Below the pieces are notes generated by a model. It was not told the origin of the DNA and did no database searches. It was given only the letters and a program-made list of their open reading frames with translations. This document shows, in pieces, positions 1-31,851 of a DNA stretch of 64,000 bases. The position numbers were made by a program, and so were the translations under genes. The first letter of the stretch is position 1. Every line of letters begins with the position of its first letter. The DNA is from Deltaproteobacteria bacterium (lineage in GTDB: Bacteria > Myxococcota_A > Polyangia > Polyangiales > JAFGIB01), in the NCBI GenBank assembly GCA_016929805.1, contig JAFGIB010000456.1, positions 7,573 through 71,572 of the forward strand. Reading direction: 5' to 3'.

Positions 1-2012
1 CGAAATCCTTTTCTCTCAATGACACGCGGCCGGATGGTGGGTTTCGATAGTTCCCGTCCGGCTCGTAGCGCACCATGACGCAAGCGACGCGATAGATGGG
101 AAAGGCGCCGGGGTCATCGAACGAGACTTCGGCAATAAAGAATAGAATTCGGTTCCAACCGTTTCCCGGAAAGTCGGCGTTCGGGTTGGTCGCCGAGGGT
201 ACCAGGGTAATATTACCTATTTTGAAAGAGTAGCAGGTAGTTCCCTGGTCGTCGTGCAGCTTCTCGACTACGTAACGATACGAACCGAGCGAGCGCGTTG
301 CTGATTCGTTGCACCACGGGTCGGTGCCCGCCAACACTTCCTCGCCGTTAAGCGTTTGGTCCCAATCCAGGTCCTGCAGGCGATCATCGCTTACCGGATT
401 GCTCTGCGCATGTTGTTCCAACCAATCGGGCAGGCCGTCCGCGTCCGTATCATATCCGTTTTTAGCGCTGCCTATAAAGATCTCTTCGCAATCGTTCAAT
501 CCGTCTTGATCTCGGTCATCGTAATCGCAGCGTTCATCGCGGTCGGCGTCGGGACAGTCGCACAGACCGTCGCCGTCTTCGTCAACACAGTCGTGTCCCA
601 GATCGTCGTGACAAGGCTGCTCGTCGTCCACCACGCAATCGCATTGGCCGTTCATGTCGACATCTCGCAGACAGTCACAGAAGCCGTCTTGATTTTGATC
701 GACACAGGGGTCTGGTATAAAACACTTGGCATCGCTCGGGTCTCGTGCGTCGAAGCCGGTGGTCTGCATACGCCACTCAAGACGGTCGTTGAGGCCGTCA
801 TCGTCCGTGTCGGGCACCAAGGGATCGGTTCCGATTCGTCGTTCCGTGATATCCGCTACACCATCGCCGTCCGAGTCGACAAGCGGCTCGGCGCAACCTG
901 GAAGCTCATCACCATCGATATCGACGAACAGCCTGAGATCGACAGCATCGGGCTCAACATCCGCATCCTCGATTCCCGCGTCCTCAGGCGTGCTCGCGGC
1001 CGCGTCCGGACGATTCGCTTGGTCCGCGCCATCCGAGGCATCGCCGTCGGCGCCGGCGTCCGCGGGAAAGAGGTAATCGAGAATTTGGTTGCGATCGACC
1101 ACCGCGTTCTGATTGACCGCGGACATGCCTTTCAGGGTGAATACGCGGCGCGCGGCGCTGACGTCGATATGAAGGAAATTCAACGACTCGCCGCTCGGAA
1201 AACTACGAAATGTGCCGTCGCCCATTTCCGCCATTCGCTGCAGCAACTGCTGAGCGCTCTTATCGTAGGCCAGGCCCTTGTCTGAAGACAGATAGGCGGT
1301 ATGAAATTGAAAGACGCCGACGTGGTAGCGGGCCGCCAGATCTTTCAGTTGCTTTACCGCGTCTAGAATATTCTCTTCGGTGTTTTGCAGCGCTTCGTGG
1401 CTGTCGACATCCGGCAGTCCATCGGATAGAAAGATCACCAAATATTTGCTCAGCGGAAGGCTCTCCGAATCGGCGGTCTTGAGCTCGGTACGAAGCTCGA
1501 AATACGCTTCCGATATGGCGTTCAGATAGTTGGTCGTTCTGTCCGTTACCCGCAGGCCCGCGGTACCCGCCTGCAGCAGACCGGTATCGGTCGTATAATA
1601 GCTATCGGGCAATCCGTCCGGTGGAGTATCCAGGTCTTCGGGTGTCTCGCTGTGCGCTTCGGCGGAAAAGCGAAGAATGCCCACGCGTACACCCTCCGGT
1701 CCGCCCTCGAGGACCTTCCTCCAGGTTTCACTGACCGCGCGTTCTCGTCCGGTCTCGCCGCTAACCGGATCGCCCGGATCGGTAACCAATATCGATTCCG
1801 AGGAATCTACTACGAATAAGACCCGAAGCGGAAAAACGATGCTTTCCGGCGAGGTCGTACAGAAGTTACCCTCGGCGCCGAATTTATCATCTCGAACCAG
1901 TGGCGGGCGGGCGAGAGGTTCGATCTCCGCATCGGTGCAGCTCGCTCTTAACACCAAAAATACACAGAATAATAAGAGTAAGGCGTTTCGTTTGATGGCA
2001 ATCGTTTTCATT
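1..2012 (-). CDS. VWA-domain / thrombospondin-type-3-repeat lipoprotein, paralog 1 (C-terminus runs off the window start)
   Basis: Absent from the ORF track because there is no stop in the window. My reverse-strand translation from the ATG at 2012..2010 gives MKTIAIKRNALLLLFCVFLVLRASC (lipobox), VLFVVDSSES (MIDAS DxSxS) and repeated DxDxDGxxDxxE motifs (DSDGDGVADITE, DTDDDGLNDRLE, DTDADGLPDWLE). The frame stays open to the window edge. Confidence 0.8.
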
Positions 2013-2031
2013 TTTCTAAGGACAACGGCGG

Positions 2032-4344
2032 CTAACGACTTAAGGTATAACAACACGGATTCGGCAACCCCGCCTCTTGCCATTGTTCATAAGCTCCCGC
2101 ATCGAGATACCCTTCGGGGGCGGACGCGTCCGCATCTAAATCGGAGCACGAGTCGCAGGCCTCGCGAATACGTTCGACCAAATCGAAAAGGTACTGCAGC
2201 TCCCACGGACGATAGCAATCTCGCGCCGCGTCAAAATTCTCAATCGGGACGAACAACTCGGATGACGGCATCGGCAGGTTGATCGCAAAATTTTCAGCGA
2301 CGTAGTGCCTCAATAGGGCTATCGCATCTTGTCGTTTATAGGCGAAGCGCCCCAACGCGATACTATCGGAAAGGCACTGTTCAATCACGCCTTCGATCCG
2401 CGGGCGACTGAAGTTATCACCGGTGAACCAAGGGCACTTCTGAAGCCTGTCGACCTGTTTTTGGATTTTCAGCAACAGTTTTTCCCAGCTCTCGCCGGTC
2501 ACGTCGATCTCGCCGCTCTCGGGATCCTTGCTGGTCTCGCTGCGGTAAAAGGCCTCGAAACACGCGACGTAGGTGGACGATCGCGTACCGGCGAGCTGGG
2601 CGGCCTGTTCAGATTCATAAATAAAAATGCGATTCAGGCCGCGGTCCGGAACCAGCGGCGTTGTCACGAGCTGAATATCGCGCGCTTCGAACGCGGCGCA
2701 AGAGCGCGCTCGGGTTTGATCGGAACCGGACGGCGTAATTTGTCGGATCCCGAGATCCTTCCATTCGTATTCGATGCGTTGCTCTCGGAAGCGGTCGGCA
2801 TCGGGGACTTGGGGGTTGGTTCCACCCCGTATCTCATCGAGGTTGCTATTTCCGTCAAAGTCGAGATCCTGAGTCGCGTCCGCAACCGTAGGATCGGTGC
2901 CATTAACGATTTCGATCCAATCGAGTATGCCGTCGCCGTCGCTGTCGCTACGGCGGGTATCGGTGCCGATCATCGTCTCCTCGCAGTCGAGTAGACCGTC
3001 GCCGTCCAGATCGCTCGGTTCGCTGCAGGTGATCGCCGGCTGCAACGGGTCGGTGGGGTCGAAGCCGAGCTTCTTGTAGCGCAGCTCAAATAGGTCCGAG
3101 TAGCCGTCGGCGACCTCGGGCGTCGCGTCGGAATCACGCTCTTTATATTTCGTACCAAGGTTGCGTTCGAGCGCGTCGCCGAGACCGTCGGCGTCGGTGT
3201 CCGGCTCATAGCCGTCCCTGGTGAGGGAAGCGTATTGATTGCGGGCCATGAACGAAGAGGTCCACAGCGGTTTTTGCAGCGACCGATAGTCGAATTGCAG
3301 GAAGTTGTTGTCAGCGGCCGTATGAATGTTGACGTCCCGAAACGCCCCTGTTCCCGCGGCGGCCATGGCCTGAAGCAGGTTACGCGCTTGGTTTTGATCG
3401 TAACCGAAAGTGGACGCAACTTCGCCGCATACCGCGGTGACCTCGGCTTGCGGCGCGAATAAGAATACCGAGTGTAAAGCGACGTTGCCCACCGAATAGG
3501 TGTCTTGTAGCTCGATCAAATCGCTGACGCGCTGCAAGATGAGCTCCGGTTCGTTATAAGAGGGACAGATCATGTCGAAATCGACGTACTCATCGGCTTC
3601 AAGCACTTGACGAATGTTCTCGGGATCATCGGAATCCGGATCGCCCGTATAGTTGCAGATCGCGTAGAGATTATCCGGGTGCAACAGGTTGTCCCCGAGG
3701 TTGGAGCAGTTGTCGTCGGAACCGTCTATCAGGCCGTCGCCGTCGTTGTCGATTCCGTCCTCGCAATTGGTGCGGTCGTCCTCGCATCCGGCAAGGCACC
3801 TCGGTTCCGGTATCCCGTCGCTCACGAAGGCGATGACATAGCGGGAACGAGCCGGAAGCCCCGGATCGCTCGTCATAGCCGTGAGAATGTCATTTTCTAC
3901 CGCGCGCAAAGCCGTGGCCAACGCGCCTTGATAGTCCGTAGCGACGCCGCCGCCTTGCTCTTCTCCAATCGCGCCGCGAATCGTGCCGCTATCGCGAGTA
4001 AAGGGGGAATAGCGCGTCCAAGAGGAAAACCCGATCACGCCGATTTGCGCCGATCGGTTGCTTAAGACATCACCCACCAAGCGATTGAGCGCCTCAAAAC
4101 GGCGGTTCGCGGGATCGGTGCACTGAAGCGAGGCGGACTGATCGATGATCAACAATACTTTTACCGGGAACTCGACCGTTGTATCGGGTTGTACGCAATA
4201 TTCGCCTTTTACGGTCAGAAGATTGTCGAATTTTTTCTTTACCGAGGACTGCAACGGTTGCAGCCCGGCATCGCTGCAGCTACCGAGAAAGTGCAGCGCG
4301 CCCGAGATCAATATTATATAAAACAATCGACGAAACGTATTCAT
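2032..4344 (-). CDS. VWA-domain / thrombospondin-type-3-repeat lipoprotein, paralog 2
   Basis: 770-aa ORF. Lipobox is HFLGSC. MIDAS is VLLIIDQSASL. TSP3-like acidic repeats include DTDADGLGDALE, DLDGDGLLDCEE and DSDGDGILDWIE. It has a Cys-containing C-terminal domain and lies 19 bp upstream of paralog 1 on the same strand. Confidence 0.85.
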   Translation of the reverse strand: MNTFRRLFYIILISGALHFLGSCSDAGLQPLQSSVKKKFDNLLTVKGEYCVQPDTTVEFPVKVLLIIDQSASLQCTDPANRRFEALNRLVGDVLSNRSAQIGVIGFSSWTRYSPFTRDSGTIRGAIGEEQGGGVATDYQGALATALRAVENDILTAMTSDPGLPARSRYVIAFVSDGIPEPRCLAGCEDDRTNCEDGIDNDGDGLIDGSDDNCSNLGDNLLHPDNLYAICNYTGDPDSDDPENIRQVLEADEYVDFDMICPSYNEPELILQRVSDLIELQDTYSVGNVALHSVFLFAPQAEVTAVCGEVASTFGYDQNQARNLLQAMAAAGTGAFRDVNIHTAADNNFLQFDYRSLQKPLWTSSFMARNQYASLTRDGYEPDTDADGLGDALERNLGTKYKERDSDATPEVADGYSDLFELRYKKLGFDPTDPLQPAITCSEPSDLDGDGLLDCEETMIGTDTRRSDSDGDGILDWIEIVNGTDPTVADATQDLDFDGNSNLDEIRGGTNPQVPDADRFREQRIEYEWKDLGIRQITPSGSDQTRARSCAAFEARDIQLVTTPLVPDRGLNRIFIYESEQAAQLAGTRSSTYVACFEAFYRSETSKDPESGEIDVTGESWEKLLLKIQKQVDRLQKCPWFTGDNFSRPRIEGVIEQCLSDSIALGRFAYKRQDAIALLRHYVAENFAINLPMPSSELFVPIENFDAARDCYRPWELQYLFDLVERIREACDSCSDLDADASAPEGYLDAGAYEQWQEAGLPNPCCYTLSR

Positions 4345-4878: not shown

Positions 4879-5445
4879 ATGTTGTCATTGCTATTGCTCG
4901 CTTGCTTGCTTACTTTTGCGGGTTGCGGCGTGGAGTCGCGCATCGAATTCCGAATCTGCGGAAAGCTTAAGGTTCCAAATCAGCTCGACGCGCTTCGCGT
5001 TTCGATTCTGGATACCGAGCTGACGGAACAGGGTTTCGCGCTCATCGAATTGACCGAACGCGATATGGTCGCGGAGGGCGGAGTTGAAGACAGCGCGACT
5101 AAAAACGACGACGCGCTAAGAAAGACGGATGAGCCAAGCCGGGAAGCCACCGAGGACGGCGGCCTAGACTCGGAGCGGCGATCGAGTACAATCAAGTCGC
5201 TACCCGTGACCGCTTCTTTAGAAGGGATAGAGGGTCCGGGCTATCTTAGAGTTCAGGCGCTGCTCGAAGGAGTAGAAGTGGCCCGGTTTGACCGTTGGAT
5301 TGCAGATCGGGATGCGGCTTCGACGGTCGATATGCCGTTAACAGAGAGTTGTTACGGAAGATATAACTGCGCGCTCGGCCAAACATGTGTCAAGGGTAAT
5401 TGCGTGGTTGCGCCGATCGGGAACGATCCACCCGCTTGCGATTAG
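4879..5445 (+). CDS. small lipoprotein with a Cys-rich C-terminus, function unknown
   Basis: 188-aa ORF. N-terminus is MLSLLLLACLLTFAGCG (lipobox). It has an acidic middle and a C-terminal CYGRYNCALGQTCVKGNCV motif. It sits directly upstream of paralog 3. Confidence 0.6.
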   Translation: MLSLLLLACLLTFAGCGVESRIEFRICGKLKVPNQLDALRVSILDTELTEQGFALIELTERDMVAEGGVEDSATKNDDALRKTDEPSREATEDGGLDSERRSSTIKSLPVTASLEGIEGPGYLRVQALLEGVEVARFDRWIADRDAASTVDMPLTESCYGRYNCALGQTCVKGNCVVAPIGNDPPACD

Positions 5446-5455: not shown

Positions 5456-7414
5456 ATGGCGTGCAGAAACGCTCGCGCTGATTTTATTCGTGATATGAGC
5501 TTGGTTTGCGCGCCGCTCATTTTCGTCGCATTCGCCTGTACCGACGCGCGACTATACAGCGACGAGGGGCCCGCGATGCAAGCCGACCGCTTGACCCTAC
5601 GCGGAAGGGTGTGTGCGCAGGATACGATGGCGGAGCGATTACCACTGCGCATCGTGATCGTGGCGGACCAGGCCGCCGGGCCGCTATTTTCGAGCTTTGA
5701 TCCGGGCGGTCTTCGAATTCAGTATCTGCGCGACTTCGTTCAATCCGCCGTGGCTTCCGAGCAGACCGAGTTGGCGGTTATCGGCTACGCCAATCGATCG
5801 AGAACCCTGGCTCCCCAAGAGGGCAACTTTACCCGCAATCCCGGGGAGCTTTTAAGCGCGATCAACCAACTGGCGATCTCGGAGCCGTGCTTGACGAACG
5901 GCATTTGTCGCGATTACCTGGAAGGACTGCGTACGGCTCGCTCCCTTATCGAAGGTGACATGGCGCAAACCGAAGCGGGCGTGCGCGTGCTCACGGAGTA
6001 CGCGGTCGTCTTTTTGCTCGCCGGTCCGCAGGTTCCGCTGGCGTCGAACGTCGATTGTTGCGAGGTCGGAGATGCCGCTTGTCTACGGCAAGATCCGCAG
6101 CCGAGTAACGAATGTCAGTCGCAGCGACAGCAACGAGAGATCAAAGCGCTGCGCGAAGCGGTAGAGACGGGCGGAGGTCTCGGCGTACGCGTACATGTGT
6201 TGCACCTGGCGGCCGAGGAGGAGGCGGTCAACGAGCAGCTACAGAGCGAGATGCGGGACCTGGCCTTTGAAGGACTGGGCTCGTACACGCGTATCGGCAG
6301 TTCAGAAGCGCTATCGGTGAGCGGAACCCATGTGCTGGAGCAACGAACCGATCTAAAAGTCAAGGCTTTAATCGTATCGAACATCAACGCGAAGCCGAGC
6401 CCCGCGGGTCCGCTCGTCGATTCAGACGCCGATGGTCTCGCGGATGATCAAGAAAGCATTCTCGAAACAGATCCGCAGAACGCCGATACCGACGGAGACG
6501 GAATCGGGGATTTGGTCGAAACGCTGACCGGCATACAGCCTTTACAGCCCGATCAGCCGGCCGCCTGTCGCCAATTGAAAAAAGCCGGACAAGACAGCGA
6601 TCTTGACGGTCTATCGGACTGCGATGAGGCGCTGCTTGGAACGGAGCCGACGCTGGTTGATTCCGACGGAGACGGTATGCCGGATAAACTCGAGGTAGTC
6701 GGCGCGACCGATTTTTTGCATTCGGACGCGCAGGCCGATAACGACGACGACGGCGTCACCAATAGCGACGAATTAAGCCAGCATTCGGATCCCAGGTCCG
6801 ATGACAACACCGCGAGACGCACCTACCGATACCGATATGAAATTGAGGACGAGGGAGTGCTCGAGGAACTATACGCACTGCCGATGGGGCAGTTGACGGG
6901 TGTTGAGATAGTGCGAATGAGCGCGGGGACAACACCGGGAGTAGGGATATTGCGCTATTCAAACCAAAAGAAGACCTTGAGTTGGCAAGACGGTATCGAC
7001 ACGTCGCCGGGTCGGGCGATAGACGTCTCCGCCGAGGGGATGGTTGAGCTGCCGTCCTCGTCGTACGCGCCCGTACAGGGGGAGGAAGGTAAGCGAATCG
7101 AAGTCGATATCCGCTTCGAGGATCTTCCGGGAGTGGACGTGAACGAGCGCGTTCGTATTATTTATAGAAAGAGACATTGCATCTCCTACACTGTAAGAAA
7201 CGTTCGATTAATGAACACACGAAATACCGGGGAGTCAGACGACGGCCTCAACCGAATAGTTCTCTATTTCGCAGAAGCTCCCGAAGGACGAACGCAACGA
7301 CCCGGCCCCTTCAGAATGGCGGAGATACCCGTTGTTTTTACGCCGCCTGAAAGACGCGATCCGTCCGCGCCGGCGATAGTGGTTTTCGATGAGGAATTTG
7401 TCAGACCGAAATAG
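5456..7414 (+). CDS. VWA-like / thrombospondin-type-3-repeat lipoprotein, paralog 3 (degenerate MIDAS)
   Basis: ORF 5387..7414. I prefer the ATG at 5456, which follows agagg and gives MACRN...LIFVAFAC (lipobox). The VWA-like region is IVIVADQAAG, with no Ser in the MIDAS position. TSP3 repeats include DSDADGLADDQE, DTDGDGIGDLVE, DSDGDGMPDKLE and DNDDDGVTNSDE. The C-terminal domain is shared with paralogs 1 and 2 (YRY...NRIVLYFAE). Confidence 0.8.
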   Translation: MACRNARADFIRDMSLVCAPLIFVAFACTDARLYSDEGPAMQADRLTLRGRVCAQDTMAERLPLRIVIVADQAAGPLFSSFDPGGLRIQYLRDFVQSAVASEQTELAVIGYANRSRTLAPQEGNFTRNPGELLSAINQLAISEPCLTNGICRDYLEGLRTARSLIEGDMAQTEAGVRVLTEYAVVFLLAGPQVPLASNVDCCEVGDAACLRQDPQPSNECQSQRQQREIKALREAVETGGGLGVRVHVLHLAAEEEAVNEQLQSEMRDLAFEGLGSYTRIGSSEALSVSGTHVLEQRTDLKVKALIVSNINAKPSPAGPLVDSDADGLADDQESILETDPQNADTDGDGIGDLVETLTGIQPLQPDQPAACRQLKKAGQDSDLDGLSDCDEALLGTEPTLVDSDGDGMPDKLEVVGATDFLHSDAQADNDDDGVTNSDELSQHSDPRSDDNTARRTYRYRYEIEDEGVLEELYALPMGQLTGVEIVRMSAGTTPGVGILRYSNQKKTLSWQDGIDTSPGRAIDVSAEGMVELPSSSYAPVQGEEGKRIEVDIRFEDLPGVDVNERVRIIYRKRHCISYTVRNVRLMNTRNTGESDDGLNRIVLYFAEAPEGRTQRPGPFRMAEIPVVFTPPERRDPSAPAIVVFDEEFVRPK

Positions 7415-7486
7415 TGATTTCTTTCACTCGGCAAAAAGTGCTAAAGTGATCAATAACGTTGAAAAACAAATCGTGTTGGTGATTTT

Positions 7487-8305
7487 ATGAGTATAGAGAA
7501 GCGATACGGGCGCATTTGGTTAGAGCGGTCATCTGTCTGTTCGCGTATTTCTAGCGGGAGTCAAGAGCTCGGCGACCGACGGAGTCGCTATCATAGGCTC
7601 TTGAGAGTGTCCCTCGCGCTTACGTTGTTTCCTCTCTTTTTATCAGTACTACTACCGACAATAGCGGCGGCGCAGTCTTCCACGGTCGAACAGTCGGGCT
7701 CCCAGAAGAGTCGAGCGCCACGCAAGGGAAAACCGGTTCGCGCTCAAACGAATGCCAAAACACGCAAGGGCGGCGGGCAAACCGTTCGCGGAAACCGTAC
7801 AACGGCGGGCGCCGGCGCCGAGAGCGGGCGAATCGACGCCGACTCCGCTAGCGTTATGGGTAGAGAGGAAGACAATAGCCAAACGGCTGCCGCGAAGGGC
7901 GAAAGCGACAGCGTGGAGGCGAGTATCGCAAGCAAGCGCGGCGAGCGAACGCCGTCATCGGAAAGCGACGGGATCAGGTTAGATCAAAAAGAGAAATTGG
8001 GCGAAAAGGAAGAATCTATCGATCGAGTTGGATCGGGGGCGTCCGCTCTACGATCGAATCGCATGGAGTTCGACGCACGCTTGGTATATGGCGAGACCGC
8101 GGGCAGCGGCGCGGTGATTCTATTTGATCGAGGGCAGAGGGACCTTCCGCCTTTGACCAGACGACGAAAGAGGTTTTTGTCGGCCACCACCGAATCGGTA
8201 TTTGGCTCGAAAGACGAGTTGCGTTATCGCATTCGAGACGAATTCAAGGAAGTCGAGCCCGATAACAGTAATGATAAGTCAGCGAGCGATGGACTCGGCA
8301 ACTAG
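7487..8305 (+). CDS. secreted low-complexity (Ser/Arg/Gly/Glu-rich) protein, unknown function
   Basis: 272-aa ORF with a hydrophobic signal-like segment LALTLFPLFLSVLLPTIAAAQS. Its stop overlaps the probable start of the downstream GltG/J-like gene. Confidence 0.5.
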   Translation: MSIEKRYGRIWLERSSVCSRISSGSQELGDRRSRYHRLLRVSLALTLFPLFLSVLLPTIAAAQSSTVEQSGSQKSRAPRKGKPVRAQTNAKTRKGGGQTVRGNRTTAGAGAESGRIDADSASVMGREEDNSQTAAAKGESDSVEASIASKRGERTPSSESDGIRLDQKEKLGEKEESIDRVGSGASALRSNRMEFDARLVYGETAGSGAVILFDRGQRDLPPLTRRRKRFLSATTESVFGSKDELRYRIRDEFKEVEPDNSNDKSASDGLGN

Positions 8306-12630: not shown

Positions 12631-12906
12631 CAGCAGGTTGTGATCAGCAAGGAACCCTACGACTGAAAAAAACGTCATACCGAAACGCGGCGGCGCGAAC
12701 ACGCGAGCGAGCGGCGATTTTCCGTAGCGTTTGGTTGGTCATTGATAAAAACTATTGTCTATTCGAGAACTTCGAATTCCTATTCTATCAGTTTGTCGCC
12801 GGGCTAAAAATAGGAGATCGATACGTAGATTCTCAAAAAGTGGGGGCAAAACAACCTGGGAACGCGGCGATAACGGTTCGCCCTTGGGTAGTATTGAAAT
12901 AGAAAA

Positions 12907-17675: not shown

Positions 17676-17685
17676 GCGCGAGTGT

Positions 17686-17772: not shown

Positions 17773-17957
17773 CATGGACACCGAGGATGTTTATTATTGA
17801 GCCGCGCTTGGATATGATACTAAGATAGAAGAACGACATCATAATCTATCTAAGTACGAGATAACACCCGATGTCATACATTGTATTATAACCATCGATA
17901 GACAGCAGTTGAAAACGAACCTTAGATTTAATATCGAAACCGCTTCGAGCATAATAG

Positions 17958-23366: not shown

Positions 23367-23369
23367 GCT

Positions 23370-24095
23370 ATGCGCCGTTTTTCGCGCATCTGGATGAAAA
23401 GAACGAGTTTGCTTGTACTAGCGACTTTTATCGCTTTCGGTTTTGCCTGCGGTTCCCAACAGGTCGAACCGCTCGATCCCAACGACTCGACTCTTCCGCA
23501 AGATACGAGGAGATGGATTGCGGCGGCCGAGGACGGTGTCGTCGCGGCCCGCGCGCGACGCGATGCGGCAAAAGAGCGACTAGAACGGGCCCGCGCGAGA
23601 CAGAAGCGTATGTTGGACGAAATCGACTTCGGCTCTAAAGGCGCTAAAGTCGTCGATTCCATGAACGCTCGCTTCGAGCGACACCAAGACTATTTGGAAG
23701 CGCAACTCGATCGCGCCGAGGCGCTTCTCGCACTGGCGGAAGCTAAGTACGAACTCGCGACCGCGGAGCAGGCTATTATACACGATATCGCGCGTTACGA
23801 TGTAGAAGAGATCAAACAGAAAGTCGAGCATGCGCGCCGACAGCTACAAGATGTCCGGAACCGTTTGCGTCAAACTCGGGAATCCCTCGACCGAACCACG
23901 ACGCGCTTTTGGCAGGTGTACGCCCAATATTTAAAGGAAGGAGGCGACGCGTTGCGTTTCTGGACCGGTAAAGGGCCGTCGATGTCAATCGCACGGTCCG
24001 CACCCAAAACCGGCACGGATGCTAAACCTCAAGAGCAATCGGTCAATCCCCGTTCCAATGTCAATCCAAAGGATTTGCCCTCGAACCCCTTTTAG
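23370..24095 (+). CDS. coiled-coil lipoprotein, last gene of the Glt-like operon
   Basis: 241-aa ORF with lipobox FIAFGFACGS and heptad-like charged helices (ARRDAAKERLERARARQKRMLDE...). It starts 3 nt after the previous stop. Confidence 0.55.
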   Translation: MRRFSRIWMKRTSLLVLATFIAFGFACGSQQVEPLDPNDSTLPQDTRRWIAAAEDGVVAARARRDAAKERLERARARQKRMLDEIDFGSKGAKVVDSMNARFERHQDYLEAQLDRAEALLALAEAKYELATAEQAIIHDIARYDVEEIKQKVEHARRQLQDVRNRLRQTRESLDRTTTRFWQVYAQYLKEGGDALRFWTGKGPSMSIARSAPKTGTDAKPQEQSVNPRSNVNPKDLPSNPF

Positions 24096-24170
24096 ATCGA
24101 TATCCGTCTCATCGGAACCAGAGTCCGCTATAGGATGTGAATAGTGAACCTGATGTCGGTTTCCTTTTTT

Positions 24171-24284
24171 TAACTTTGCAAAAGCCGTCGAACGGAAACG
24201 CTAAAAAAGCGAGCGCCGGCTTGGCTATCGCTATTTTTCGCTAGCGAAGAGCTTTGCGCTTACGGAGTTATAGCAATGGTAAGG
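24171..24284 (-). repeat. family-1 foldback repeat, short copy (both termini, internal deletion)
   Basis: taactttgcaaaagccgtcgaacggaaacgctaaaaaagc ... cgctagcgaagagctttgcgcttacggagttatagcaatggtaagg. Confidence 0.7.
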
Positions 24285-24683
24285 CTTAATAGGCCCGCCA
24301 ACGCGTACTCCCGGGCGACGAAGCATATTCGTTGTATATCGTTTATTCGCTTTATTATTCAGAATCAAGAGTAATGTCTACGCTGAGCAACTAACATAGG
24401 AGCGATGATCCACGGCGCGACCTACGGGCCGATCTTCTCTACGCGCTAAAAGATCTGACCACATGTGGTTACGAGCTTACAAAATCGTCGACACACTCAT
24501 TATCTTGCTGGTTGTCCTGGCGCGTAAGAGATCCGGGCCCTATGTGGTATATACCGCGGAGTAGGAACAACGAGTTGTTTTAATAGGCGACCTGTTATTC
24601 GTTTTTAAGAAAGCGCATACACGGAAGAATCGCATCTATAGAAAGATGCTGGAAAGACCTGCTCTGCGCGCTATCTATATTAT

Positions 24684-24872
24684 CCTTAACCTTGCTAAAA
24701 CTCCGCCGGCGTAAAGCGCTTCGCCGCGAAAAACAGCGCGAACTAAGGGTGTGCTCACTTTTTTTGGACTTCACTTAGGGTGCACTGAGCTCGGGTCCAA
24801 AAAGAGTTCCGCGCGCCCGTATTTCATCGCTTTTATCGCGTTTCCGCTCGACGTTTTTGGCAACGTCAGGGT
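24684..24872 (+). repeat. family-1 foldback repeat, full copy
   Basis: It is near-identical over ~190 bp to 45668..45859. Shared stretches are ccttaac.ttg..aaaac.ccg.cggcgtaaagcgcttcgc...ctaagggtgtgctcactttttttggac.tcacttagggtgcac...cgtttccgctcgacgttttt.gcaacgt.a.ggt. Confidence 0.9.
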
Positions 24873-25067
24873 TATTTATCCCTACTCAAAGGACGAAAAA
24901 GATCTTTTTTGAATTGCTCGTATGCTCCGAATTCTAATAGACTTAAAAAATGCGTAAAATGACGTTATCCTATTTTGGGAAATAAAAACTCTTTTAGTCA
25001 CTTCTCAAGGGTTTGCATAATTTCCAAATTGTCCTTATCAGGTGGGCAGCTGATGGGTTAAGCTTTT

Positions 25068-25829
25068 ATGGCGAGGCAGTTTTACAAGAAACGAGATCGC
25101 GTATTATTAGTAGACGACGAGCTTACAGTCGCTTGGAGTATTGGGCGCTATTTGACCCGAGCGGGTTTTTCGATTTCCGCCTGTGGCTCTGTATCGGAAG
25201 CTCTCGAACTACTCAATTCAAAATCCTATGACGTGGTTATAACGGATATTCATATGCCCGGAACGAGCGGGCTGGTGCTGATCGATTGGATTCGTGATAA
25301 TCGACCCAATATGCGAGTCGTAACCATAACGGGGTTCGGCTCGCCCGCTCTGCACAAGATCGCGATGGAAAAAGGCTCAATACTCTATTTGGATAAGCCC
25401 GTCGATGTCGAATATCTTGTAAATGTGTTAAGAAATGACGGCAACTGCAGTACCTTTTGGGGAAGCATCGGAGGAATTGATATTTTCGATTACATACAAT
25501 TAATATTGATGACGAGACAAAAATTTATCGTAGAAATCGCCTCTAAAGAAGGCGTCTACGGAAAAGTATTTTTGAATCAGGGGGACGTGGAACACGCCGT
25601 CTGCGACGATATTACGGGAGAAGAGGCTTTTTATCGGATACTCGGTTTTAAAGGCGGACGTTTTACCACCATCCCCTGGTTGGAGCCCGTAGAGAAAACC
25701 ATCCATCTATCCGGCGATTTTCTGATGATGGAAGCGGCTCGAAAGAAAGACGAGCGGGATATTAACACGCCTGCCGATGCAGGCCAATCGCGAGACGCGG
25801 ACGCGTTCGAGGAGAAGAAATATGTCTAG
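25068..25829 (+). CDS. response regulator: receiver domain fused to a PATAN/DUF4388 domain
   Basis: 253-aa ORF. The receiver region is ILLVDDE...DVVITDIHMPGTSG...TITGFG...YLDKP. The C-terminal half (GSIGGIDIFDYIQLILMTRQKFIVEIAS..GKVFLNQGDVEHAVCDDITGEEAFYRILGFKGGRFT) is DUF4388-like. Confidence 0.85.
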   Translation: MARQFYKKRDRVLLVDDELTVAWSIGRYLTRAGFSISACGSVSEALELLNSKSYDVVITDIHMPGTSGLVLIDWIRDNRPNMRVVTITGFGSPALHKIAMEKGSILYLDKPVDVEYLVNVLRNDGNCSTFWGSIGGIDIFDYIQLILMTRQKFIVEIASKEGVYGKVFLNQGDVEHAVCDDITGEEAFYRILGFKGGRFTTIPWLEPVEKTIHLSGDFLMMEAARKKDERDINTPADAGQSRDADAFEEKKYV

Positions 25830-25907
25830 GCGGATGCGTAGCTCGAGCTTTAAAACCGTATTTACGACGTCGGCATACGCGTCAAGATAGAGAAGACGGG
25901 GAGGGTT

Positions 25908-26399
25908 ATGAAGGCCTTAACCATGGAAACATCGAATATAAACACACAAAAGCTTTCGGATGTGCTGAGCGACTTTATAGCCGAGACCGATTCAATCGTC
26001 GCTCTTCTGTTGAATAAGGACGGTACCGCCATCGCCTCCGCGGGCAGCGAAAACGCGATCGATACGACGGCGATGGCCGCCTTGATAGCCGGAATGTTTT
26101 CCGCGACGCGAGAGGTGGCGAAGATGGTTGGAGAGCATCAGTTTTCCATCCTTCTTCAGCAGGGAGAAAAAAGGCACATCCATATTTCGCTCGTTAATGA
26201 GCACGTTATGATGGCGGTGGTATTTGAGGGATTTCATCGAATCGGACGTATCAGATATGAGTCGAGAAAAGCATGTAAAACGATCGGGGCGGCTCTGGCG
26301 ATTACCGACCAGACGAATAACAACCAAAAAGTTATCTCAATTCCCGAGTTCAAGGAGGTCGCTCTGAACCTTATAGATAGTATATTTACCAACAAATAG
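25908..26399 (+). CDS. mglB: MglB-type Roadblock/LC7 protein (GAP partner of MglA)
   Basis: 163-aa ORF with RBS ggggagg. ALLLNKDGTAIASAGSENAIDTTAMAALIAGMFSATREVAKMVGE...HIHISLVNEHVMMAVVF...GRIRYESRKA parallels M. xanthus MglB. It lies immediately upstream of mglA, as in Myxococcus. Confidence 0.85.
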   Translation: MKALTMETSNINTQKLSDVLSDFIAETDSIVALLLNKDGTAIASAGSENAIDTTAMAALIAGMFSATREVAKMVGEHQFSILLQQGEKRHIHISLVNEHVMMAVVFEGFHRIGRIRYESRKACKTIGAALAITDQTNNNQKVISIPEFKEVALNLIDSIFTNK

Positions 26400-26408
26400 G
26401 GCCGAGAG

Positions 26409-26990
26409 ATGCCGTTTATCAACTACGAAAATAGAGAGATCTCGTTTAAAATCGTATATTACGGGCCGGGCATGAGCGGCAAGACGAGTAATATCATTTT
26501 CGTGCATAAAACCATAGCTGAAGACAAAAGAGGAGAGTTGATATCCCTTAAGACGTCAGAAGAGAGGACGTTGTTTTTCGATTTCTTTCCTCTAGAGCTC
26601 GGTCATATCGCCACGTTTTCGGTACGCTTTAATATGTATACGCTGCCCGGGCAAATATATTATGAGGCCAGCCGTCGTTTGATTTTGGACGGCGCCGACG
26701 GCGTGGTTTTTGTAGCTGACTCGCAGCGTTCGCGATACGAAAGAAACATTCTTCATTATCAACTGTTAGAAAAGAATCTAATGCTGTATAAAATAAATCC
26801 AAAGGCGTTTCCCATAGTTCTGCAGTACAATAAGAGGGACTGCGATACGCCGATCGAGATAGGTACGATCGAAAAGCAATTAGGGCTCGAAGACGTACCC
26901 GTTTTCGAGGCGGTTGCAACCAGGGGCGACGGGGTACTCGAGACGATACGAGAATTATCACGAAGGGTTATCAGCCAATTTGAGGTATGA
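26409..26990 (+). CDS. mglA: MglA-family Ras-like small GTPase
   Basis: 193-aa ORF. MPFINYENREISFKIVYYGPGMSGKTSN (P-loop) and RTLFFDFFPLELG are present. YTLPGQ shows the MglA-specific Thr in place of the Asp of DxxGQ. VVFVADSQ and LQYNKRD (NKxD) are also present. It is near-collinear with M. xanthus MglA as I recall it. Confidence 0.92.
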   Translation: MPFINYENREISFKIVYYGPGMSGKTSNIIFVHKTIAEDKRGELISLKTSEERTLFFDFFPLELGHIATFSVRFNMYTLPGQIYYEASRRLILDGADGVVFVADSQRSRYERNILHYQLLEKNLMLYKINPKAFPIVLQYNKRDCDTPIEIGTIEKQLGLEDVPVFEAVATRGDGVLETIRELSRRVISQFEV

Positions 26991-27043
26991 GAGTGAGGAT
27001 ATTTTTTACTTTGCTTAAATATATTTGACAGAGAGAGTATAAC

Positions 27044-27748
27044 ATGACGCTGCGCGGTTCATTGTCGGATCTAGGATCAGTACAACTCGTGCAATTCCCG
27101 TATAACGGAAGGAAAACGGGCGAGCTATTTATATCTAACCGCAACGCGGAAGCCCGTTTCTATTACCACGAGGGAAACCTCATTCACGCCGCGACTGGAA
27201 AGAAAACCGGAATAGATGTGTTGATCGATGTACTCGGCTGGACAGATGGAGAATTTGAATTTCGGACGGGCGTACGGCCTGAACGTCGGTCGATCGAACA
27301 AGATCTACACCAGGTTTTAATGATGGCTTTGGTAGCCAAAGACGAGAGAGAGCGGAGAAATAGCCAAATGCACGAAGAGAAATCACCGGAATTGATCAAA
27401 AAACGCATACAAAAGCTGCTAGACGAATTCGTAACATCCACGACGTACGTCCAATATAGCTATATTCAGGATTCCAACACGAATGTTATCGCTATATCCC
27501 GAGCGCTTCAATCACGCGATAACCTGAAAAGAATGCAGGATACGATATCTTCTTTTGTTCGATCGTACCCCGGTGAGCTCGGTCGAGCGTTTTTCGAGAG
27601 CGAAGAAGGCATGATTACAATTATGAGGCTAGTTGGGAAACGTTATCTTATTATGTTTACGAATCCGGAGGCAAGTCTTGGGATGATCACGGTGAAGGCG
27701 GGCAAGCTCGCCGCGTCTTTAGATGAAACACTGAGCCCAAAAGAGTGA
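27044..27748 (+). CDS. PATAN/DUF4388 domain fused to a Roadblock/LC7-like domain
   Basis: 234-aa ORF. The N-terminus is LRGSLSDLGSVQLVQFPYNGRKTGELFISN...GNLIHAATGKKTGIDVLIDVLGWTDGEFEF (DUF4388). The C-terminus is ...GRAFFESEEGMITIMRLVGKRYLIMFTNPEASLGMITVKAGKL (Roadblock-like). Confidence 0.75.
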   Translation: MTLRGSLSDLGSVQLVQFPYNGRKTGELFISNRNAEARFYYHEGNLIHAATGKKTGIDVLIDVLGWTDGEFEFRTGVRPERRSIEQDLHQVLMMALVAKDERERRNSQMHEEKSPELIKKRIQKLLDEFVTSTTYVQYSYIQDSNTNVIAISRALQSRDNLKRMQDTISSFVRSYPGELGRAFFESEEGMITIMRLVGKRYLIMFTNPEASLGMITVKAGKLAASLDETLSPKE

Positions 27749-27755
27749 ACGCGAG

Positions 27756-28934
27756 ATGGCCGACGAGAAAAAAAACGCGAATGACACGCCCCTTCCTCTA
27801 TTTTTGATATCGTGTATTGCGGAGGGGATTATTGACGAAAAGACGGCGTATCGTATCGAGACGGTTCGCGAAGAAAGCATCGCGTCGACTTTCGGTATGC
27901 TTGAGGCAATTCCTGACCCCAGCTTACGATTTAGTAGCTTTTATCCGTGTCGCGCCAACGCTATGGCGATTCAAATTGCAAAAAAAATTGCAGAAGAAAG
28001 AACCGCACCGGCAGAATACAATCCGATTTATTTCTACGGGGATACGGGCTTGGGGAAGACCCACCTTCTTTCGGCTATTGCTAACGAACTGGGCGATAGG
28101 GAAGTCTTGTTTCTAAACGCGGCGTATCTCGATAACGAATGTATCGAAGCGATTGCACCGCACGAAAATACATCATTCCGCAATTGGCTACGGTCATTTT
28201 ACGCGTTGGTGATAGACGATATTCAGCAGTGTCCGAGGCAGAAGGAGATCGAAAACGCCGTTGCGTTCAGCATAGATGAGATGGCTTTTCTTAATCGGCC
28301 TGTGGTTGTCGGCTCGGATAGGCCCTTGGAGGAGTTGAGCGAATTAAGCGACTTTTTGCTTTCGCGATTATCACGGGGAGTAAAAGCAAAGCTCGAGATA
28401 GGGGATGAGGCGGAACGATTTGCAATCGTAAAAGGTATGGTGGGAGAAAATACGGTACCCAATACCGTCCTCCACTATATCGCGGCTCAGATCGACGACA
28501 GCGTGCGTCGATTAAAATCAACGGTGACCCAATTGATAGCTATACATAACGAATTGGCCCGCCCGATAACGGTGAATCTCGCACAAACCGTTATCTATGG
28601 TGAGCCGGACAGACAACATAGGACTATAGCGAGTTTACATCCCGGTATGTCGAGCGAGATCGATCTCGATTCATCGAAACCATCTCTTGAGTCGGACGTC
28701 GCCGAGCTGTTTAAAAAGATGCTCGTAGACGCGGAAACAGAAGAAGAGCAGGCGTTAGCGCTTCAGATAGCGATCAGTGAGAGAGTGCGACAACTGAAAC
28801 GCGATAAAAACGCCGAGAAAGAGGCTTTAGAGAATTTAGAACACGCGCTGGAGATGCTTCGTGAGGGTAGCTTAGAAGAAGCGATTCATTACATAAATCG
28901 CGCGCGAGAAAAGAAAGACGAGCCCTTTATTTAG
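27756..28934 (+). CDS. DnaA-domain-III-like AAA+ ATPase with no DnaA domain IV (Hda-like architecture, acidic coiled-coil tail)
   Basis: 392-aa ORF. YNPIYFYGDTGLGKTHLLSAIANE (Walker A), ALVIDDIQQC (Walker B), NRPVVVGSDRPLEEL, LLSRLSRGVKAKLEIGDEAERFAIV and DSVRRLKSTVTQLIAIHNELARPITVNLA are collinear with DnaA domain III. No helix-turn-helix DnaA-box-binding C-terminus is present. Confidence 0.8.
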   Translation: MADEKKNANDTPLPLFLISCIAEGIIDEKTAYRIETVREESIASTFGMLEAIPDPSLRFSSFYPCRANAMAIQIAKKIAEERTAPAEYNPIYFYGDTGLGKTHLLSAIANELGDREVLFLNAAYLDNECIEAIAPHENTSFRNWLRSFYALVIDDIQQCPRQKEIENAVAFSIDEMAFLNRPVVVGSDRPLEELSELSDFLLSRLSRGVKAKLEIGDEAERFAIVKGMVGENTVPNTVLHYIAAQIDDSVRRLKSTVTQLIAIHNELARPITVNLAQTVIYGEPDRQHRTIASLHPGMSSEIDLDSSKPSLESDVAELFKKMLVDAETEEEQALALQIAISERVRQLKRDKNAEKEALENLEHALEMLREGSLEEAIHYINRAREKKDEPFI

Positions 28935-28977
28935 CATCGAAGATCGGGGATGAGGAGATAAAGAGAGGAGCACGATT

Positions 28978-29334
28978 ATGACACAACTGAGCGTTTTACT
29001 TGAAGAGCTCGTCGAAATAAGCGGAATAAGAACAGCGCTCGTGGTAGGACGTGATGGGCTGGTCGTGGATAGCGCCACAAAAAAGTATCGGGATGATGAT
29101 GATGCCGTCGGCGCGATAATATCTACGGGAATCTGCTCAATAGAGTCGACGGGAAAAGAACTGAACCTCGGTAAATCGACTCAAGGACTCCTAGAATATT
29201 CCGACGGCGTGGTGCTCATCAACGCGTTGGCCGAAGATTCCTTACTCGTGATTGTGGCTGATAAAAAAGTAAATCTCGGAAACATCCGGTATCAAGCTAG
29301 AAAGCGTATGACTTCGCTACAAAAAGCTATTTAG
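28978..29334 (+). CDS. stand-alone Roadblock/LC7 protein
   Basis: 118-aa ORF with a strong RBS (agaggag). The sequence LLEELVEISGIRTALVVGRDGLVVDSA...GAIISTGICSIESTGKELNLGKSTQGLLEYSDGVVLINALAEDSLLVIVADKKVNLGNIRY is Roadblock-type. Confidence 0.8.
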   Translation: MTQLSVLLEELVEISGIRTALVVGRDGLVVDSATKKYRDDDDAVGAIISTGICSIESTGKELNLGKSTQGLLEYSDGVVLINALAEDSLLVIVADKKVNLGNIRYQARKRMTSLQKAI

Positions 29335-29359: not shown

Positions 29360-29944
29360 TTAGCCGATCGCAGGCAAAACCTCTGCAGTCGTTCTCATAA
29401 TGGCTTCTTTTAACCGATGTTCTAACGGCGTACGCGTGACGACGCCTAGAATAAAATGCTCTTCGTCGCTTTCAGCGACCTGGAAACCGTAAATATGTTG
29501 TTTGTCGTAATCGAGATTTACACAAAGAAGCCTATTTTCTTTGTCCGAAATACGGTTTAGCTGCTCAAGCGCATAACTCAGCTCGGCGCCCACGCCTTCA
29601 GAATGTTCATCGGGGAGAGCGCCACAATTCGATATAACAAACCCTTGAGAATCGACTACGAAAGTCGATTCCGCGTTGATCGCTTCGTGGCACCATCGCA
29701 CAAAGGAGTCAATGCTACTAAAACCGCTCTCCGGCCTTTTAGGAATCGCTTGAAGCTTATCTTCCTCCGTCACCTGCGGCTCACTCGGCGGCTTTTCTTG
29801 AGTCGGTCGAAAGATAAAAGGAGGATATACCGGAGTCGCATTTTGCGGCTCTAAGGTGCTTTTTACCTTGGTCTTTTTACAGAGTTTGTGACTCAGATTG
29901 CTAGCGAGGTGAATGTCAAACGAGCTCTCTTTGCGGCCTTTCAT
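29360..29944 (-). CDS. protein with a Pro-rich N-terminal linker and a Roadblock/LC7-like C-terminal domain
   Basis: 194-aa ORF overlapping the parA-like stop by 29 nt. The C-terminus is EAINAESTFVVDSQGFVISNCGALPDEHSEGVGAELSYALEQLNRI...LLCVNLDYDKQHIYGFQVA...FILGVVT. Confidence 0.6.
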   Translation of the reverse strand: MKGRKESSFDIHLASNLSHKLCKKTKVKSTLEPQNATPVYPPFIFRPTQEKPPSEPQVTEEDKLQAIPKRPESGFSSIDSFVRWCHEAINAESTFVVDSQGFVISNCGALPDEHSEGVGAELSYALEQLNRISDKENRLLCVNLDYDKQHIYGFQVAESDEEHFILGVVTRTPLEHRLKEAIMRTTAEVLPAIG

Positions 29945-30731
29945 CGGTTTCTCCTATACATCCGCCTAACAAGGCTATTCTATCTTCGATTTCCGTAGCC
30001 AGCGCTTCAAATCGTCGGGCTTCCGGTGGAATACGGCCGCCCAAAAATGCGATGGGCAAACCGGCTTCGCTCGCTGCGGAGAAGACCTGAGCGCGGGGGA
30101 TTACCGTTTCAAAAACCGTCGCAAATCCGGACCACACCGTACTCATCACGTTAAATGACGCCTCCTCACCGAGTTGAACCATCGTCGCCAGTATTCCCAG
30201 CAGCTCTAGCGATTCGTTTTCGTTGGTCTTCACGTGGTCGATCACGCGCAACGTCTGACCGATAGACCGAAGGGCTAATGGCTCGGCTTGAAGAGGAAGA
30301 ATGACGAAATCGGCTATTTTCAGCGCCGTTCTCGTTACCAATCCCAATCCTGAGGGCGTATCGAAAAAAATACAGTCGAAGTCGGCATCGACCGCTTCAA
30401 TTATCTTAGCTATCGAATCCACGGATTGAAGAGCCATCTCATATTGGACAATATCCACAGGATCTAGCTTTCCGCGCGGTAAAATCGATAACGTCGAGAG
30501 CTTCGTTGCAATAATCGCTGTCTCCAAAGGTGCCCGGCCCATCAAGTAATCGGCCAAACCTACCCATTCGGTATCGCCCTTTGCCAACGAATGACCGATA
30601 GCTCCTTGCGGATCGAGATCAACCAATAAGACGGAACGCCCTCGCTCGGCGAATACGACTGCGAGATTAAGCGCGCTCGTCGTCTTTCCGGTACCGCCTT
30701 TTGTACTGATTATGGCAATTTTATTCTTCAC
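29916..30731 (-). CDS. ParA/MinD-family deviant-Walker-A ATPase
   Basis: 271-aa ORF with a GTG start after aggggag. Motifs are KIAIISTKGGTGKTTSALNLAV, LLVDLDPQG and CIFFDTPSGLG. Confidence 0.9.
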   Translation of the reverse strand: MKNKIAIISTKGGTGKTTSALNLAVVFAERGRSVLLVDLDPQGAIGHSLAKGDTEWVGLADYLMGRAPLETAIIATKLSTLSILPRGKLDPVDIVQYEMALQSVDSIAKIIEAVDADFDCIFFDTPSGLGLVTRTALKIADFVILPLQAEPLALRSIGQTLRVIDHVKTNENESLELLGILATMVQLGEEASFNVMSTVWSGFATVFETVIPRAQVFSAASEAGLPIAFLGGRIPPEARRFEALATEIEDRIALLGGCIGETDERPQRELV

Positions 30732-31051
30732 GATATCTCCCCTTTCATACGACGATTAATCGGAGAAGCAGATGTCCTTCCGGCAGAGGAAAAGGAGATG
30801 GAGACGAAAGCTCCGCGGTCCCTTTTGGTCTCTATAAGGAATGTGTCTACATATAGAGCGCCTTGATCAGCGATCGACTCCAATAGCTCAACCTTTCCAA
30901 TGACCACCGCGAGTCCATATCATAACAACCATCGCTTGTAAATCCTGCTACAACTCGCCGCATCGATTCGAACGGCGAGCCGATTTCATTGTACTACCTC
31001 CTATTCTTAGATGGGTTTTGTAGACAGCCTATTGCCCATCTATTGAATAGA

Positions 31052-31450
31052 CTAGCTTATTTCTTTAAGCGAGCCGAGTAACGACTGGAAATGTTTTTTT
31101 ACACACATCCGAACCATGCCGAGTTTCACTTGTTTGGGTACGCCTATAGCGATCGCCATATTGGTTTCCCTATTAGGCGATATTACGAAGAACGCGGATT
31201 TGGTCGTCTCCAGAATAAATTCTTTGAATCCCCCCACTAAAGTTCGCACCGTATCATTACGCGCGTGCTTCTGAGCATGAACGATCAAGTCGAGCATGTT
31301 TCCAAATGCAATTCCGATCGACTCACCGTCGATATGGTGTTGATCAGATACATTGCCGATCGGCAATCCGGTTTCTAAGTCGAAACACGAGACAAAATAG
31401 CAATTGCCGATATCGCGATTGATTTCTTGTAAAACGTTTATCAATGACAT
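31052..31450 (-). CDS. divergent Roadblock/LC7-like protein
   Basis: 132-aa ORF. The size and alpha-beta pattern fit the fold (CYFVSCFDLETGLPIGNVSD...ESIGIAFGNMLDLI...GGFKEFILETTKSAFFVISPNRETNMAIAIGVPKQVKLGMVR). Confidence 0.55.
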   Translation of the reverse strand: MSLINVLQEINRDIGNCYFVSCFDLETGLPIGNVSDQHHIDGESIGIAFGNMLDLIVHAQKHARNDTVRTLVGGFKEFILETTKSAFFVISPNRETNMAIAIGVPKQVKLGMVRMCVKKHFQSLLGSLKEIS

Positions 31451-31470
31451 GGTAACAACTCCCCGTAATA

Positions 31471-31851
31471 TCAGCCGATCAAGGGCTTTAGTTTAGTCAA
31501 GTACTTATTCGACATGACTCGCAGCATGCCGAGGTTGCCTGTTGCGTTCACACCCGCCATCAACGCGACCTGTAGCTGGGCATCTACGACGATGAAGAAC
31601 GACGCGCCCTCAACCTCGAGTATCATAGAATGCAAACCGCCGCAGATTTCCTCGGGCAATATTTTGAGAAAGTTGTTTATTCGGTCCCAGATATTGGCAT
31701 GGATGGCTGACATCGCATCGATATTGGTATCGGGAACATCGGAGTCTACAGCAAGCATCAACCCATCACCGATACTAAAGACAGCCGTGGCGACCGCCCC
31801 GGGTAATTGCCGCTTAAACTCGGTGATCAAAGCCTGAATTGGATTGGCCAC
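31471..31851 (-). CDS. divergent Roadblock/LC7-like protein
   Basis: 126-aa ORF. The sequence is GAVATAVFSIGDGLMLAVDSDVPDTNIDAMSAIHANIW...LHSMILEVEGASFFIVVDAQLQVALMAGVNATGNLGMLRV. It is the first gene of the minus-strand run. Confidence 0.6.
   Translation of the reverse strand: MANPIQALITEFKRQLPGAVATAVFSIGDGLMLAVDSDVPDTNIDAMSAIHANIWDRINNFLKILPEEICGGLHSMILEVEGASFFIVVDAQLQVALMAGVNATGNLGMLRVMSNKYLTKLKPLIG

Follow-up and report, generated by a model that had tools for sequence, protein, structure and literature searches.

The 64,000-nucleotide stretch of contig JAFGIB010000456.1 analysed here (hereafter the window) belongs to an uncultured Myxococcota metagenome-assembled genome (MAG) and carries, in its left half, a cluster of genes for adhesin-like and Glt-like envelope proteins followed by a cassette for a predicted MglA/MglB-type GTPase switch. 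These are probably two independent conserved units adjacent by happenstance: Unit 1, a Glt paralogue of the Mts/G5 type of Myxococcus xanthus, starts ~4 kb beyond the left edge of the window and reaches position 24095, and Unit 2, the mgl switch, occupies positions 25068-29334. The initial annotation had proposed that the first ~32 kb could be one surface-motility or surface-remodelling supercluster. Part of this stands as a single linked cluster (MtsC, the VWA/TSP3 lipoproteins V1-V3, a GltG-like protein and the genes K, barrel, C, D and E, with the extracytoplasmic function (ECF) sigma factor, FecR and LamG genes added in the closest relatives), but the mgl genes do not belong to it, being beside it in none of 79 related loci.

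In M. xanthus, gliding genes are grouped in clusters G1, G2 and M1, and the sporulation paralogue Nfs corresponds to G3; no function has been assigned to G4 (MXAN_1919-1923) or to G5 (MXAN_1327-1331, whose genes run D, C, B, G, F), the disruption of either of which leaves motility intact (Luciano et al. 2011). By locus tags, G5 adjoins mtsC (MXAN_1334), whereas mglA/mglB (MXAN_1925/1926) are one gene away from G4. The premise that such functions are dispersed around the M. xanthus chromosome therefore holds for the gliding set, but not for G5, beside mtsC, or G4, beside mglA/mglB. As relayed by papers citing Zhang et al. 2007, MtsC has been linked to cell-cell cohesion, S-motility and development, and not to A-motility.

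Open reading frames (ORFs) of the window were identified with Pfam and NCBIfam models, NCBIfam equivalog cutoffs being applied, and each class of gene listed in the initial annotation was found near the place given for it, with the corrections described below. The family of D, the large TPR lipoprotein of the cluster, was used as synteny query (D aligned with 11 homologues). The sample consisted of 80 D loci with 10-kb flanks from one-genome-per-species contigs; counts refer to the 79 related loci, 55 of Myxococcota type and 24 from other phyla. Proteins of the window and of locus L004 were mapped to all loci by blastp and phmmer.

Adhesin and Glt-like genes were linked throughout this sample. 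In the 24 loci of distant lineages (Desulfobacterota, Nitrospirota and Gammaproteobacteria, among the last Litoribacillus, Bermanella and Saccharospirillaceae as examples), the order AglR-AglQ-AglS-GltG-AB-C-D-(one gene)-TSP3-VWA/TSP3-PPC was collinear; the E-values of the matches ranged from 1e-13 to 1e-86, and alignments of the VWA proteins covered most of their length. These distant loci lie within L057-L081; examples are L063 (3433-19417) and L078 (2847-22284). The 55 Myxococcota-type loci were organized in divergent units: MtsC-V2-V1-PPC-BNR-s167; K; AB-C-D-E; and GltG-X2-AglS-AglQ-AglR-V3-X1. All of these units, together with FecR, LamG, X3 and ECF, were found within ~35 kb on a single 81-kb contig (L002 and L082, D 58% identical), and Bradymonas sediminis showed the order MtsC-V2-V1-PPC-BNR-s167-K-AB-C. 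The closest relative found (L091, D 76% identical) carried X3-ECF-FecR-LamG-MtsC-K-AB-C-D-E, which is the exact order of the window, and X2-GltG-AB-C-D was collinear in full in L017, L030, L031, L033 and others; with respect to L002/L082 and B. sediminis, the cluster of the window was rearranged. Conservation in dozens of genomes places the linkage of adhesin and Glt-like genes far beyond chance, and this linkage is real and old.

No mgl gene was found within 10 kb of D in any of the 79 related loci, a negative that covers 26 Myxococcota-type loci with at least 9 kb downstream and 31 with at least 7 kb upstream. In relatives whose D is 76%, 70% or 58% identical, mgl genes were likewise absent (for the first two, next to E), and among the loci surveyed the glt-mgl adjacency was found in the window only. 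Unlinked positions of the sub-clusters in relatives had been named in the initial annotation as the result that would speak against one block; this is what was found for the mgl genes, whereas the adhesin and Glt-like genes held together.

The cassette itself was conserved in other surroundings. Homologues of the window MglA, 67-70% identical, were present in three other contigs (L088, L089 and L090) within the same cassette, whose six-gene order was identical in L088 and L090 and, by gene calls only, in L089, where a weak Roadblock gene was not scored as MglB in the phmmer screen. The flanks of the cassette in these contigs were unrelated (two-component genes, cytochrome oxidase, hydrogenase, thioredoxin reductase), and in one MAG the mgl cassette and the D locus (L039) were on different contigs. 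A search for MglA in metagenome contigs returned only 2 loci and was uninformative for synteny. L089 is a 269-kb ENA contig labelled Acidobacteriota_UBA4820 (MglA 67% identical); either the cassette occurs in more than one phylum or the label of the bin is mistaken.

Composition was compared along the window, whose GC content is moderate (range 0.47-0.59). Positions 1-24095 had a GC of 0.554, and their tetranucleotide profile correlated at 0.97 with that of the remaining window. In the mgl part, GC was 0.47, 7-8 points lower than in the cluster, and 4-kb tetranucleotide correlations were 0.90-0.91, the mean along the window being 0.90 ± 0.03; equally low GC values occur in some housekeeping genes of the window. 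Scans found no tRNAs and no direct repeats, and no integrase or transposase was matched in the Pfam scans of the window. With normal tetranucleotides and none of these mobility features, the proposal that the block is a compositional island transferred as a unit was not borne out. The units are separated by a non-coding spacer of 972 bp (24096-25067; GC 0.454, the lowest of the block), which confirms the gap of about 1 kb noted initially. The spacer contained no ORF longer than 59 amino acids, no Rfam match and no repeat, and promoter/terminator, Rfam, tRNA and repeat scans of the gap and the mgl flanks gave nothing informative; it may hold the promoter or regulatory region of the mgl cassette.

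At the left of Unit 1, two VWA and TSP3 lipoproteins resembling MtsD are encoded on the reverse strand: V1 (<1-2011; lipobox LRASC, MIDAS (metal ion-dependent adhesion site) motif DSSES) and V2 (2032-4344; Pfam VWA_2 6e-9, lipobox LGSC, MIDAS motif DQSAS). The 3' end of V1 lies beyond the left edge of the window; in L085, an independent Logan assembly, V1 has 712 amino acids and is followed by genes for PPC and for proteins of 482 and 166 amino acids. The V2-V1 operon thus extends about 4 kb further left (PPC, BNR-like and 166-amino-acid genes), so that the block begins further left than base 1, its start as first assumed. On the forward strand, X1, a small lipoprotein (4879-5445; lipobox FAGC) which precedes V3 in relatives throughout (L002, L004, L005, L010, L012, L019 and L043), is followed by V3, a VWA-like and TSP3 lipoprotein (5456-7414; Pfam TSP3_bac and VWA_2; 652 amino acids in the gene call of L085). 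The DxSxS motif carried by V1 and V2 is absent from V3, whose MIDAS is degenerate. MtsD was the top-scoring NCBIfam model for the three proteins (108, 150 and 126 bits for V1, V2 and V3, respectively), yet none reached the equivalog level (cutoff 800). An ORF at 356-1285 (+) was rejected as a gene, being antisense of V1.

X2 (7487-8305, +), an exported or signal-anchored protein assigned by synteny to the GltF position, had no family match in Pfam or NCBIfam; it always lies just 5' of the GltG-like gene, the position of MXAN_1331 in G5. The GltG-like inner-membrane protein (8289-10865, +) scored 175 bits against the NCBIfam GltG model (cutoff 650). Its C-terminus is a periplasmic AgmX/PglI domain passing the myxo_SS_tail model (98 bits, cutoff 40), and its score against the GltJ model (50 bits, cutoff 450) was due to this shared C-terminal domain only. 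One transmembrane helix was located near residue 585 (numbering of the ORF from 8202), and neither a Pfam match nor an FHA domain was detected in this protein. The N-terminal ~150 residues, cytoplasmic and weakly TPR-like, stand where GltG and MXAN_1330 carry FHA, so any cytoplasmic partner of the GltG-like protein is likely to be different.

V3 and X2 are separated in the window by only 72 bp (7415-7486). This is the site at which 15 of 16 relatives (those with V3 and X2/GltG close together) carry genes for TolQ/TolR proteins resembling AglR, AglQ and AglS, over ~1.6-2.6 kb; in L004 these encode a Pfam MotA_ExbB and two ExbD proteins. A phmmer search with L004 AglR, AglQ and AglS, covering every window ORF of 50 or more amino acids, gave no match, and no scanned window ORF matched MotA_ExbB or ExbD in Pfam: the window has no TolQ/TolR motor genes. 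The block is consequently not the self-contained set that had been proposed, as the motor genes of its relatives are missing and the cluster exceeds the left edge. In L047, from a groundwater Deltaproteobacteria MAG (D 34% identical), V3 (1005-3029) and X2 are 780 bp apart, likewise with no AglRQS in between. Loss of the motor genes at this site may have occurred more than once.

Between the GltG-like gene and the next Glt-like operon lie X3, an exported protein of no assigned family (10888-11958, −; homologues in L091 and L082), and a module made up of an ECF sigma factor (11980-12678, −; Pfam Sigma70_r2 and r4_2, TIGR02937 76 bits), a FecR-type anti-sigma protein with a C-terminal TPR (13191-14522, +; Pfam FecR 1e-9) and a LamG (concanavalin-like) lipoprotein (14540-15379, +; Pfam Laminin_G_3 1e-14, lipobox GNGC). 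X3 travels with ECF, FecR and MtsC in close relatives, and ECF, FecR and LamG belong to the cluster in the closest ones. The next gene (15504-16877, +) encodes the TSP3/MYXO-CTERM protein noted initially, which could be refined to an MtsC orthologue: it passed the NCBIfam NF047638 model at the equivalog level (457.7 bits, cutoff 350), matched Pfam TSP_3 (6e-38) and MYXO-CTERM (TIGR03901, 20.4 bits, cutoff 20), and ends in a tail of Cys, transmembrane segment and RRR; it is thus classed as a TSP3-repeat surface protein with a MYXO-CTERM anchor.

The operon K-AB-C-D-E spans 17187-24095. K (17187-17675, +; lipobox VAGC) is a Cys-rich lipoprotein of 162 amino acids found in 23 relatives, in many of them adjoining the barrel gene; it had no NCBIfam family match and its likeness to GltK is one of size and position. 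AB (17958-18602, +), which passed the TIGR04565 OMP_myx_plus model (72.9 bits, cutoff 60), is a beta-barrel of the outer membrane, of GltA/GltB type, in the position of MXAN_1329, a GltB homologue. C (18562-20025, +), a TPR lipoprotein with a lipobox, scored 55 bits against the NCBIfam GltC model (cutoff 450). D (20013-23366, +), a TPR lipoprotein of 1117 amino acids (Pfam TPR families) in the GltD position, is a putative GltD homologue by its position and by core-complex synteny. E (23370-24095, +; lipobox GFAC), the last gene, followed D in 38 of 55 Myxococcota-type relatives; it encodes a coiled-coil lipoprotein rather than a GltE of TPR type. Lowering the NCBIfam threshold to E = 10 gave no match named Glt for E, X2, K, X1 or X3. 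In all, lipoboxes were present in nine envelope proteins of the cluster.

Unit 2 (25068-29334, +; Pfam and PDB matches) comprises six genes: REC-PATAN (25068-25829; Pfam), MglB with a Roadblock domain (25908-26399; 59 bits to 6h5b), MglA of 193 amino acids (26409-26990; full-length matches to 3t12 and 6h17, 196 and 192 bits respectively), PATAN (27044-27748; Pfam), a DnaA-like AAA+ ATPase (27756-28934; Bac_DnaA 1e-29) and a second Roadblock protein (28978-29334; Pfam). The MglA alignment showed an arginine finger ('ERTLFFDF') and the G3 motif 'TLPGQ', which are marks of group 1 MglA, and by these sequence features the unit is a predicted group 1 MglA/MglB GTPase switch. The DnaA-like AAA+ protein is a fixed member of the cassette in four genomes (L088 11313-12569, L089 11279-12478 and L090 11290-12357, besides the window). 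It matched the AAA+ domain only; the score against TIGR00362 was 171 bits (cutoff 344), and the DnaA DNA-binding domain was not detected in it. An ATPase of this sort is not known to have been assigned a function next to MglA.

Downstream of the cassette, a weak Roadblock-like gene (29360-29944, −; 194 amino acids, Pfam) and a gene for a ParA/MinD-type ATPase (29916-30731, −; 271 amino acids, Pfam) were found together with two small ORFs of no known family (within 29360-31851, −), all outside the conserved cassette. The Roadblock-like and ParA genes overlap and are convergent with the cassette. This pair was not beside the cassette in L088-L090 and is therefore a separate unit. The right half of the window contains housekeeping genes (ino1, a TRAP transporter and rimP-nusA-ylxR-infB-rbfA-truB). 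Two further surface-type proteins are encoded at a distance of ~30 kb from the cluster, an 838-amino-acid protein with BNR/Sortilin repeats (57160-59676, +) and a 450-amino-acid protein with weak VWA matches (60700-62052, −), neither of which had homologues in the related loci.

These data suggest a working model for Unit 1. A scaffold crossing the envelope is predicted to be made up of the GltG-like protein, the periplasmic TPR lipoproteins C and D, the lipoproteins K and E and the GltA/B-type barrel. On the M. xanthus model, this scaffold would hold or expose calcium-binding adhesins, namely MtsC and the three VWA/TSP3 lipoproteins, in the service of calcium-dependent adhesion or cohesion; the embedded ECF sigma/FecR/LamG module would tune expression. 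If the mts locus of Myxococcus is taken as a guide, cell-cell or cell-surface cohesion rather than gliding would be the likely output. Since an in-cluster TolQ/TolR motor is missing, the system may be driven by a motor encoded elsewhere or may be a static adhesion complex. For the MglA cassette, the simplest reading is that of an unrelated neighbour. The block was not borne out as a minimal gliding system complete in itself, but appears as a motor-less member of the G5/Mts branch beside such a cassette.

Several points weigh against this assignment. Orthology with G5, as against G4, Glt or Nfs, rests on the MtsC equivalog score, the gene order and locus-tag numbers; the scores of the VWA proteins stay well short of the MtsD cutoff, and D had no NCBIfam match named Glt even at E = 10. 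The cohesion role comes from Zhang et al. 2007 as relayed in citing papers. The analysis covered a single contig of this genome, 73.8 kb long, so a motor may be encoded elsewhere in it. Finally, G4 lies beside mglBA in M. xanthus, and a second, independent Glt-mgl adjacency could reflect functional coupling instead of chance.

That the whole ~32 kb forms one surface-motility supercluster, in which the MglA switch controls the Glt-like/adhesin machine and which may move as a unit, is unlikely. All of its parts are physically adjacent, MglA-GTP is reported to control the assembly of the Agl-Glt machine in M. xanthus, and with G4 only one gene from mglA/mglB an adjacency of this kind has arisen at least 2 times. 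However, the adjacency was absent from every one of the related loci, including the relatives cited above whose D is 76%, 70% or 58% identical, the cassette had unrelated flanks elsewhere and in one MAG lay on another contig than the Glt-like cluster, and in the window the two units are set apart by the spacer and by 7-8 points of GC; the window also lacks motor genes as well as tRNAs, repeats and mobility genes, and its tetranucleotide signature is normal. Functional coupling of the mgl cassette with the Glt-like cluster is, taken by itself, improbable. It is also quite improbable that the Glt-like genes are the true adventurous gliding motor of the organism, orthologous to G1/G2, with the VWA lipoproteins as traction adhesins of the CglB/CglD type. 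GltG and GltC were the best named matches, a GltA/B-type barrel and a lipoprotein of GltK size are present, CglB and CglD are VWA adhesins loaded on the Glt outer-membrane module, and the Bradymonadales are thought to prey by surface motility; but the scores were far under the equivalog cutoffs (175 vs. 650 and 55 vs. 450), the GltJ match was limited to the shared C-terminal domain, no GltH-, GltI- or GltJ-type gene was evident, and AglRQS genes are not in the window. Gene order and the link to MtsC fit G5, whose disruption leaves gliding intact, and Gammaproteobacteria and Desulfobacterota have this cluster too.

Decay following motor loss and rearrangement, which would have left a non-functional remnant, could account for motor genes missing exactly at the site where 15 of 16 relatives keep them, and for the rearrangement with respect to L002/L082 and B. 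sediminis. Against this, all genes still present are long, intact ORFs that have kept their lipoboxes, MIDAS motifs and MYXO-CTERM tag, the order X3-ECF-FecR-LamG-MtsC-K-AB-C-D-E is collinear in L091, and G5 of M. xanthus is likewise without adjacent TolQR genes by locus tags; a decaying remnant is thus very unlikely, and two independent units, the first of them of Mts/G5 type, remain our preferred explanation.

A broader proposal concerns the 'core complex' (gltC/D/E/G plus aglRQS) that Luciano et al. 2011 reported, with no function assigned, from other phyla; its genes, their Group B, occur in Gammaproteobacteria, Deltaproteobacteria and Fibrobacter. Because TSP3, VWA/TSP3 and PPC genes share an operon with aglRQS-gltG-barrel-C-D in 24 loci, we tentatively consider, as a possibility well short of an even chance, that this complex was ancestrally a TolQR-powered machine for the display or tensioning of calcium-dependent TSP3/VWA 'Mts' adhesins, and that the window holds a derived, motor-less, ECF/FecR-controlled form beside an MglA cassette. 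If this were true, the adjacencies in the window and at G4 would hint that polarity GTPases repeatedly couple to adhesion machines. The consistent synteny of TSP3/VWA genes with the Glt core complex across phyla would offer a testable function, adhesin display, for which the cultured B. sediminis, with its full cluster, would be suitable.

In its general logic the window resembles the Agl-Glt machine of M. xanthus (G1, G2 and M1): both have a TonB-like protein in the inner membrane, TPR scaffolds in the periplasm, a barrel with a lipoprotein in the outer membrane, and surface adhesins with VWA and TSP3 domains. In M. xanthus the outer-membrane module GltA/B/H/K carries CglB, a VWA adhesin, and CglD has both TSP3/COMP-like and VWA domains. 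The window proteins, in contrast, are not orthologous to the Agl-Glt proteins by model score, no motor is present in the window, and no giant ORF resembling GltI was evident in addition to the missing GltH-, GltI- and GltJ-type genes (GltH was not specifically searched). The order of domains also differs, TSP3/COMP preceding VWA in CglD and VWA preceding TSP3 in the adhesins of the window.

Unit 2 resembles the group 1 MglA/MglB modules in its arginine finger, its TxPGQ G3 motif, its adjacent mglB and its PATAN proteins, the association of PATAN with MglA/MglB having already been described (Wuichet and Sogaard-Andersen 2014; Makarova et al. 2006). It differs from them in the added DnaA-like AAA+ protein and second Roadblock protein, in the fixed six-gene order, and in the scores of only 192-196 bits between its MglA and the M. 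xanthus and Thermus MglA structures.

The closest match for Unit 1 was the G5/mts region of M. xanthus, compared by gene order and size: X2(F)-GltG and barrel(B)-C-D, both present in the window, correspond in order to MXAN_1331-1327, MtsC is above its equivalog cutoff, MtsD-like VWA/TSP3 proteins are present, and TolQR genes are absent inside both clusters (in G5 by locus tags). Differences were also seen: the GltG-like protein has no FHA domain whereas MXAN_1330 does, the VWA/TSP3 paralogues of the window number three and each scores well under the MtsD cutoff, the cluster contains an embedded ECF sigma/FecR/LamG module, and MtsC is placed before K-AB-C-D-E, apart from the V2-V1-PPC operon. 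With the core complex, the window shares clustered homologues of C, D and GltG, but it is without the defining aglRQS, is split into divergent operons and carries extra regulatory genes. The distant loci surveyed here additionally carry the barrel, TSP3, VWA/TSP3 and PPC genes in one collinear operon; Luciano et al. 2011 mention only one unnamed extra gene, and thrombospondin or von Willebrand domains are not named in their supplements. No description of this cross-phylum synteny of TSP3, VWA and PPC genes with the Agl-Glt core complex was found in the literature examined. The cluster is thus of a kind already known but poorly characterised, the G5/Mts-type Glt paralogue, of which the window is an ordinary further case, and the cross-phylum synteny of the TSP3/VWA/PPC genes with the core complex is the most interesting point that emerges from the comparison.

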